A DNA stretch of 40,367 nucleotides, from the IMG/VR virus record IMGVR_UViG_3300045988_046182, positions 1-40,367 of that record. One strand, 5' to 3'. The stretch is from a virus. Below, piece after piece: positions 9,801-9,907 of the stretch. The translations under genes were made by a program, and so were the position numbers. Each line of letters starts with the position of its first letter. Position 1 is the stretch's first letter. The notes under the pieces are model-generated. The model had not been told where the DNA came from. It worked only from the letters and a program-made list of their open reading frames with translations, and searched no databases.

Positions 9801-9872
9801 AAAAAAAAAGAGAGGAATTTTTCCTCTCGTCTTAGGGGTGAGTATATTTTATCAAAGGAGAATTTCATGTCC
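9801..9872 (-). ncRNA. Candidate small RNA: promoter to terminator unit of about 70 nt
   Basis: Promoter at 9879-9907, then ggacaugaaauucuccuuugauaaaauauacucaccccuaagac, then hairpin GAGAGGAaaaauuCCUCUC (9810-9828) plus a U9 run. CUCCUUU anti-SD motif; no RBS. Confidence 0.35.
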
Positions 9873-9878
9873 AACTAT

Positions 9879-9907
9879 ATTATAGCAAACTTAACTATCG
9901 TTGTCAA
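9879..9907 (-). promoter_or_regulatory. Consensus sigma-A promoter TTGACA-17-TATAAT
   Basis: Minus strand ttgacaacgatagttaagtttgctataat. Confidence 0.5.

Follow-up and report, generated by a model that had tools for sequence, protein, structure and literature searches.

Positions 9801-9907 of the viral DNA analyzed here raise the question of what is made, and for what, when a perfect promoter leads after about 70 nt into a strong terminator without an intervening gene. The window, that is the whole stretch of 40,367 nt (IMG/VR record IMGVR_UViG_3300045988_046182), comprises nearly the complete genome of a siphophage of Clostridium perfringens that belongs to the phiCP39-O/phiCP26F type, and phages of this group share 95-97% identity with it in the region around 9801-9907, hereafter unit 1. 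Nearly every gene of the window is on the minus strand. In the order of transcription, unit 1 is preceded by the genes for the large terminase, the portal, a minor head protein and a small HK97-gp10/Neck1-like connector (the gp10-like gene). It is followed by the gene for a 45-aa membrane protein, a variable stretch and a single small gene of opposite orientation, and further on by an RHH-like 42-aa gene, a VapE-like helicase gene, an iteron array and a second promoter-terminator unit at 7311-7411 (unit 2), beyond which come a 62-aa gene, the scaffold gene and the major capsid gene. The features of both units are collected in Table 1.

Table 1. Positions and properties of the elements of units 1 and 2 and of adjoining features
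Feature	Position	Strand	Properties
P1, -35 hexamer TTGACA	9907-9902	minus	overlaps the TGA stop codon (9906-9904) of the gp10-like gene
P1, extended -10 element TGcTATAAT	9887-9879	minus	TATAAT 9884-9879, TG 9887-9886
Predicted non-coding transcript of unit 1, 70-72 nt	about 9872 to about 9801	minus	start inferred 7 nt past the -10 element; 3' end in the U-tract
5' region of the transcript, 44 nt	9829-9872	minus	predicted single-stranded; candidate seed
CUCCUUU	9860-9854	minus	core of the 16S rRNA anti-Shine-Dalgarno tail; plus strand reads AAAGGAG
CACCCCU	9840-9834	minus	C-rich; within the invariant 17-nt block CTCACCCCTAAGACGAG
Terminator hairpin GAGAGGAAAAATTCCTCTC (GAGAGGAA-AAA-UUCCUCUC)	9828-9810	minus	8-bp stem, 3-nt loop
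U9 tract of the terminator	9809-9801	minus	also A/T-rich DNA upstream of P2; 7-9 U in relatives
P2, TTGACA-16-TATAAT with TG	9791-9764	minus	second perfect promoter; begins 10 nt past the U-tract
45-aa membrane-protein gene	9731-9594	minus	phrog_22191; driven by P2; ends at the terminator 9595-9572
31-codon ORF	9867-9962	plus	AAAGGAG, 6 nt, ATG; antisense to the 5' end of the RNA and to P1
Unit 2, perfect promoter	7411-7383	minus	
Unit 2, predicted RNA, about 66 nt	about 7376-7311	minus	single-stranded ACCUCC at 7368-7363
Unit 2, terminator hairpin	7343-7313	minus	
Promoter directly after unit 2	7304-7275	minus	

Genome setting

The gp10-like gene upstream of unit 1 (11169-9904, minus strand) is interrupted by an insert of 921 nt, about 10934-10014, which contains an HNH endonuclease ORF (10875-10198, phrog_374); an uninterrupted gene for a 111-aa protein is found in HMD-PC1, CPD1, phiCP13O and others. 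The boundaries of the insert were set by eye and from the end of a match to staphylococcal phages, in that a stretch of 146 nt with 81% identity in two 92-kb Staphylococcus/Mammaliicoccus phages stops exactly at the 3' boundary (10013). With its final G, and with a U that would be the last base of exon 1, the insert resembles group I introns; next to the insertion site, the exon differs in sequence from the intron-less relatives in a co-conversion-like manner. A search of this suspected intron with the Rfam group I intron model gave no match at E<=5. In GenBank, the split gene is annotated as a truncated 78-aa ORF only.

On the other side of unit 1, the 45-aa protein is confined, by tblastn, to the phage group of the window. 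The interval from its gene to the plus-strand gene (9560-9300) marks a hot spot where genes are gained and lost, as judged from four relatives (L003, L007, L009 and L011); some relatives carry a PAPS-reductase gene or additional small ORFs there, and nucleotide diversity (pi) rises to 0.41 immediately after the 45-aa gene. Two divergent promoters lie back to back in this region, the plus-strand one (9342-9370) matching at 12/12 positions and the minus-strand one (9326-9297) at 10/12, with TG. The former drives the sole plus-strand gene, which encodes a 41-aa protein (phrog_16552, within 9402-9546), has its own terminator and is convergent with the 45-aa gene, and the latter drives the RHH-like 42-aa gene ahead of the helicase. 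This divergent layout at 9297-9370 looks like a small regulatory switch.

Directly 3' of the VapE-like/D5-type helicase gene (9159-7876), more than 10 copies of an iteron-like repeat (AAAATGTAGTAA, plus strand) occupy 7483-7860. Array and helicase gene together are a probable replication origin module, situated within the head-morphogenesis cluster and flanked by units 1 and 2. A perfect hairpin without a U-tract, GAAGGAGG-TTT-CCTCCTC, lies between the iterons and the unit 2 promoter at 7422-7439 (minus strand), immediately upstream of the -35 box. In CPD1 (L010, MH999280), the 3' end of the gp10-like gene, unit 1 and the 45-aa gene are tandemly duplicated with a period of about 633 nt, at 3914-4186 and 4547-4728 and running on across the start of the record; this duplication could be real or could be an assembly artefact at the circularisation point.

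Promoters and terminators at the operon junctions

The original prediction placed a TTGACA-17-TATAAT promoter on the minus strand at 9879-9907. It lies exactly there and carries a TG extension in addition, so that P1, with 12/12 consensus positions and a spacer of 17 nt, has the make-up of a sigma-70/sigma-A promoter. The overlap of its -35 box with the end of the gp10-like gene is seen in the translations as well as in the intact gene of HMD-PC1. The window contains 12 such perfect 12/12 promoters, 11 of them on the minus strand, while 200 dinucleotide-preserving shuffles of the window had 0.105 on average and at most one; this large excess indicates that they are real signals and not a by-product of A+T richness. 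Downstream of nine of the 12, GGAGG and an ATG follow within about 40 nt, and only those at 9907 and 7411 reach a terminator without passing a gene, that is, without a Shine-Dalgarno (SD) sequence and ATG. The promoter at 20620 had been considered as a third orphan unit and was rejected, as its leader of 100 nt leads to an SD sequence and an ATG.

Seven of the perfect promoters (38443, 30644, 23411, 22640, 19373, 17479 and 9791, all on the minus strand) have in common a near-identical cassette, TTGACAAGATAATTAAGTnTGnTATAAT followed by TAAATTGTAAA, in which the spacer and the bases transcribed first are included. Its recurrence points either to a binding site for a regulator in the spacer and the initially transcribed region or to repeated duplication of a promoter. 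P2 belongs to the cassette group, P1 of unit 1 matches the cassette only in part, and the cassette is absent from the promoter of unit 2.

The strong terminator with its U9 tract, predicted at 9801-9828 some 70 nt past the promoter, was likewise recovered at these positions and has the form of an intrinsic (Rho-independent) terminator. Its hairpin is retained in every natural variant, the sole change in the stem being an A to G in XP41-N3 that still pairs as G-U. Terminator-like sites are in general more frequent than expected, with 12 against 2.7 in the 9-kb stretch around unit 1, and the hairpin was rightly described as almost the same as the one that closes the tape-measure gene (AAGAGAGGGAAATTCCTCTCTT with T8, 38482-38454). 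No other terminator lies between the stop codon of the gp10-like gene and 9828. As the first one after that gene, the terminator of unit 1 must also end the operon of terminase, portal, minor head and gp10-like genes.

A terminator followed by a promoter is the standard operon junction of this phage, as seen at 38481/38443, 30683/30644, 19409/19373 and 7343/7304. At the tape-measure, VapE-like and 45-aa genes, the terminator abuts the stop codon. Unit 1 is the exception: the gap from stop codon to terminator amounts to 75 nt and is filled exactly by P1 and the conserved 44 nt. What is unusual about unit 1 is the additional promoter in front of the terminator. With P2 directly behind the terminator, P1 is unnecessary for expression of the downstream gene.

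These junctions give some substance to the reading that the RNA is inert, the terminator serving to end the upstream operon and to shield the next promoter, with P1 as a spare or a relict, for instance the remnant of a lost moron gene or an extra entry point for the polymerase. The succession of a terminator and, within about 10-20 nt, a perfect promoter recurs at four other junctions, the P1 spacer in part resembles the common promoter cassette, and the region downstream is one where genes such as the PAPS reductase and the extra small ORFs come and go, and where CPD1 has its duplication. What weighs against this reading is the conservation of unit 1, described in the next section, as well as the maintenance of the same orphan design with an anti-SD-like motif at a second locus of unrelated sequence. 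An inert RNA is unlikely, although this reading retains a real minority chance.

That second locus is unit 2, for which the original prediction had claimed the same architecture. This was confirmed: in both units, a perfect promoter with TG extension leads into some 45 nt of open sequence that contains an anti-SD-like motif, and then into a terminator, immediately after which stands a second promoter. The proposal of a family of phage small RNAs thus holds for architecture and motif and does not hold for sequence, as the best local alignment between the two units is GATAAA, and 700 of 1000 shuffles scored as well or better. The 5' part of unit 2 (ACCUCCAAACGAUAAAGUGUUUUGC) is conserved among the relatives, and its terminator stem occurs in four different sequences, all of which form the hairpin. 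A constant 5' part next to a stem that is replaced with its structure kept is what one would expect of a seed region with a terminator behind it.

An arrangement of this kind also brings to mind the lambda PR'-tR' region with its 6S RNA, and StxS, a regulatory RNA derived from phage regulation (PMC12197685). Unit 1 would then be a leader or attenuator, in which constitutive P1 transcripts stop at the terminator until a phage antitermination factor lets the polymerase run past this terminator and later ones into the downstream genes, the short RNA being a by-product or, as StxS, a secondary regulator. As in these systems, a strong constitutive promoter stands ahead of a strong terminator, here at a distance of about 70 nt, with further genes behind. 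The design moreover is repeated in unit 2, directly ahead of the scaffold and major capsid genes, and the conserved 44 nt could serve as a loading site. A -10-like element in the initially transcribed region, TGaTAAAAT at 9854-9846, could cause sigma-dependent pausing; it is located further downstream than the pause element of lambda and varies among the relatives at its fifth position (TAAAAT, TAAATT or TAAACT). In contrast to lambda and StxS, there is no adjacent Q-like gene, the upstream gene being that of a structural gp10-like connector, and no antiterminator is annotated in the relatives. The terminator is not the sole route downstream either, since in both units a consensus promoter comes right after it and read-through is not needed. 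Together with the finding that no alternative antiterminator structure is predicted for unit 1, this makes an antitermination leader of the lambda Q type distinctly unlikely.

Conservation, fold and coding potential of the transcribed stretch

All 15 genomes of the phage group carry unit 1, among them all 11 distinct GenBank isolates, two IMG/VR contigs and one metagenome contig. A search of IMG/VR with the invariant 17-mer retrieved two new close relatives and one chance match (L017), and a metagenome scan anchored on the 45-aa gene retrieved one additional relative with the unit. With the same 17-mer, a set of bacterial contigs with one genome per species gave chance matches only, in high-GC MAGs, and unit 1 was absent by nhmmer from distant phages reached via the gp10-like protein (L026-L037). 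No homologue was thus found outside one phage genus, a range in which covariation analysis has no power.

Nucleotide diversity was determined over 14 genomes, 11 of which are distinct across the unit 1 stretch. It is 0 in the hexamers of both promoters, 0.022 in the 44 nt of the transcribed 5' part (three variable sites) and 0.031 in the terminator hairpin, as against 0.27 in the P1 spacer, whose length also varies by an indel (17 to 18 nt), and 0.117 in the adjacent 5'UTR. In the flanking genes, it is 0.10-0.20 at third codon positions and 0.01-0.05 at first and second positions. The 44 nt are therefore conserved to the level of non-synonymous codon positions. Their proportion of variable sites (3/44) is lower than that of third codon positions (28/79; Fisher test, p=4e-4) and of spacer and UTR (22/65; Fisher test, p=1e-3). 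The CACCCCU motif is invariant in all relatives, and CUCCUUU is kept in all except 17DYC, which has UUCCUUU.

As judged from the aligned genomes, the transcribed 44 nt are under purifying selection. Low diversity among closely related mosaic phages could in part reflect recent recombination rather than selection. However, hexamers, transcribed sequence and terminator are each constrained and the spacer is not, which argues for selection on a functional unit and not for block-wise homogenisation. It is also here that the inert reading meets its main difficulty, as a relict would hold neither invariant hexamers beside a diverging spacer nor 44 nt at a pi of 0.022 beside a 5'UTR at 0.117.

The terminator hairpin is the only fold of the predicted RNA. 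The 44-nt part has a minimum free energy of -0.8 kcal/mol and is less structured than shuffles (z +1.3), and the lack of structure and the exposed motif are common to all natural variants. No conserved secondary structure beyond the terminator was detected in unit 1, and the relatives are too close for covariation. The whole window gave no match to Rfam 15 at gathering thresholds, nor did 9801-9907 and 7311-7411 at E<=5. There are no repeats within the 72-nt transcript, and neither an extended complement nor a second copy of the conserved core was found anywhere in the phage genome. Three types of RNA were rejected on these properties: a type III toxin-antitoxin RNA of the ToxIN kind, as the transcript has no tandem repeats; a riboswitch or T-box leader, as it is too short and has no alternative structure; and a packaging RNA resembling the pRNA of phi29, as it is unstructured and too short.

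A constrained stretch without RNA structure might also act as DNA, for instance as an operator, as a roadblock or in replication or packaging, and unit 2 does abut an iteron-type origin. On the other hand, the core of 44 nt has no internal dyad, direct repeat or second genome copy, unit 1 has no adjacent iterons, and the 44 nt are bounded exactly by a promoter and a terminator that are both conserved. A role at the level of DNA appears highly improbable.

Whether either strand of unit 1 codes for a peptide was assessed with the same relatives. On the minus strand, an AUG at 9868 opens a frame of 26 codons, uninterrupted in the window as well as in roughly half of the relatives. The original prediction had considered it implausible as a gene, as it has no SD sequence and runs through the terminator, and the comparison bore this out: six of the 12 relatives examined have an extra nucleotide immediately behind the ATG, by which the frame is cut to five codons (MIILL or MIIFL). 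The reading of the RNA as a message for a 26-aa peptide is already effectively refuted by these comparative data and is left with next to no chance.

The plus strand offers a more elaborate possibility. Selection might act on the 31-codon ORF, which encodes a hydrophobic peptide (MSNYIIANLTIVVNLLTFVRLTFCNLPYNPL), and the minus-strand RNA might be its cis-antisense repressor, in a pair resembling a type I toxin-antitoxin system. The spacing of AAAGGAG and ATG by 6-7 nt is kept in every relative, weaker only in 17DYC, and an ORF of at least 24 codons is open in all of them. The RNA would be fully complementary to the SD sequence and start codon of this ORF, and CUCCUUU could be explained as the plus-strand SD sequence instead. 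Conservation is, however, distributed in the wrong way, the conserved part being the would-be 5'UTR and not the coding part. In XP41-N3, CPQ4 and 17DYC, one nucleotide inserted into the promoter spacer puts the ORF out of frame after codon 6, giving an unrelated, non-hydrophobic product of 24 aa, and the products of the remaining relatives differ in many residues. Upstream of the ORF, no plus-strand promoter scores above 9/12 or above chance, and there is no convincing plus-strand terminator; the plus strand of unit 2 has a GGAGGT with no start codon after it. With three frameshifted relatives and no promoter above chance, the assignment to type I toxin-antitoxin systems was rejected, and selection for a plus-strand peptide is very unlikely. 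By these comparisons, neither small ORF behaves as a gene.

A conserved promoter and a conserved terminator, a frame that is not a gene and purifying selection on the sequence in between form the pattern predicted by a functional small non-coding RNA. The favoured reading of unit 1 is accordingly that of a candidate for an independently transcribed, functional RNA of this kind, of about 70 nt, with chances that we consider about even.

Possible targets and relation to known regulatory RNAs

If unit 1 does specify a small RNA, its anatomy suggests the following course. Host sigma-A RNA polymerase would initiate at about 9872 from the TG-extended P1 and halt at the hairpin and U9, a terminator that the RNA would have in common with the mRNA of the upstream operon. 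The product would consist of the constrained, unstructured 44-nt 5' region followed by the terminator hairpin. Through CUCCUUU and CACCCCU, it would base-pair with ribosome-binding sites rich in purines, on mRNAs of the host and/or the phage, and such pairing would lower translation initiation. We infer that the RNA would accumulate and that it would act in trans and on ribosome-binding sites. Pairing with these sites is probable from the anatomy and is held with lower confidence than the existence of a functional non-coding RNA.

With 13 occurrences in the 40 kb of the window, 6-mers resembling the anti-SD sequence are rare on the sense strand, and five of them are antisense to the single plus-strand gene. 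Both orphan transcripts carry such a motif, in a single-stranded context. Over the 76 translation-initiation regions of the phage, the RNAs of units 1 and 2 are predicted to form duplexes of lower mean energy than shuffles (z about -2.1 and -4.8), and none of these regions stands out as an individual target beyond shuffles. The best duplex, of -25.9 kcal/mol compared with -21.8 +/- 2.5 and a minimum of -27.8 for shuffles, would be formed with the ribosome-binding site of the plus-strand 41-aa gene. This site is not conserved in HMD-PC1, although the RNA is identical there.

The phage itself uses AAAGGAG in 11 and GGAGGT in 23 of 70 ribosome-binding sites. Given how common these sequences are, an anti-SD action on phage messages would be broad and not specific. 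The exposed anti-SD parts of the two RNAs differ, CUCCUUU in unit 1 and ACCUCC, predicted to be single-stranded, in unit 2. It is conceivable, if quite improbable, that both RNAs together would be abundant anti-SD mimics that compete with ribosomes for SD sites and reprogram translation globally during infection. To our knowledge, no mechanism based on anti-SD-mimic RNAs has been described for phages.

Phage-encoded small RNAs have been documented almost exclusively in phages of enterobacteria and Pseudomonas. A review of phage-derived small RNAs from 2025 makes no mention of Gram-positive, clostridial or Bacillus phages (PMC12197685). In phages of the phiCP39-O/phiCP26F type, transcriptional regulation was stated to be unknown in a comparative study of 2011 (PMC3118219), and nothing about the unit 1 locus was found in the literature on these C. 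perfringens phages. The group is under development for biocontrol in poultry. If expressed, unit 1 would provide a compact and easily testable case of a virulent-type clostridial phage that produces a regulatory RNA, and its 70 nt, promoter and terminator can be mutated without touching coding sequence. The pair of orphan units with anti-SD-like motifs would likewise permit a direct test of RNA-based control of translation initiation by phages.

Unpaired C-rich or CU-rich motifs complementary to SD sequences are characteristic of RsaE/RoxS and LhrC in Firmicutes. Unit 1 resembles these RNAs in having predicted unpaired motifs of that composition and complementarity; unlike them, it is phage-borne, has them in an open 5' region and not in hairpin loops, and has no Rfam match. 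Among phage RNAs, the OOP RNA of lambda (77 nt) and the sar RNA of P22 (68/69 nt) are self-contained promoter-to-terminator units transcribed by the host polymerase (PMC12197685). Unit 1, with its about 70 nt from promoter to terminator, is similar in this respect. OOP and sar are cis-antisense to cII and ant, respectively, whereas opposite unit 1 there is no conserved gene, and its RNA would run in the same direction as the neighbouring genes.

DapZ and MicL of enterobacteria are small RNAs embedded in the 3' end of a gene and equipped with their own promoter. The same traits are found in unit 1, whose promoter extends into the end of the upstream coding sequence, with the -35 box over the stop codon, whose intrinsic terminator would be common to the small RNA and the upstream mRNA, and in which a short single-stranded seed would be followed by a hairpin. 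A promoter over the end of a coding sequence and the use of the mRNA's terminator are what defines 3'-end-embedded small RNAs at the level of sequence, and the predicted RNA of unit 1 is better described as such an RNA with its own promoter. Unlike DapZ and MicL, it is phage-encoded and belongs to a Gram-positive host, and it has no sequence relation to them; the weak Rfam match to DapZ in the window, at 7842-7907, lies outside unit 1 and is at chance level. Unit 1 would represent a new, putative phage-encoded small RNA, of a kind that is already known.
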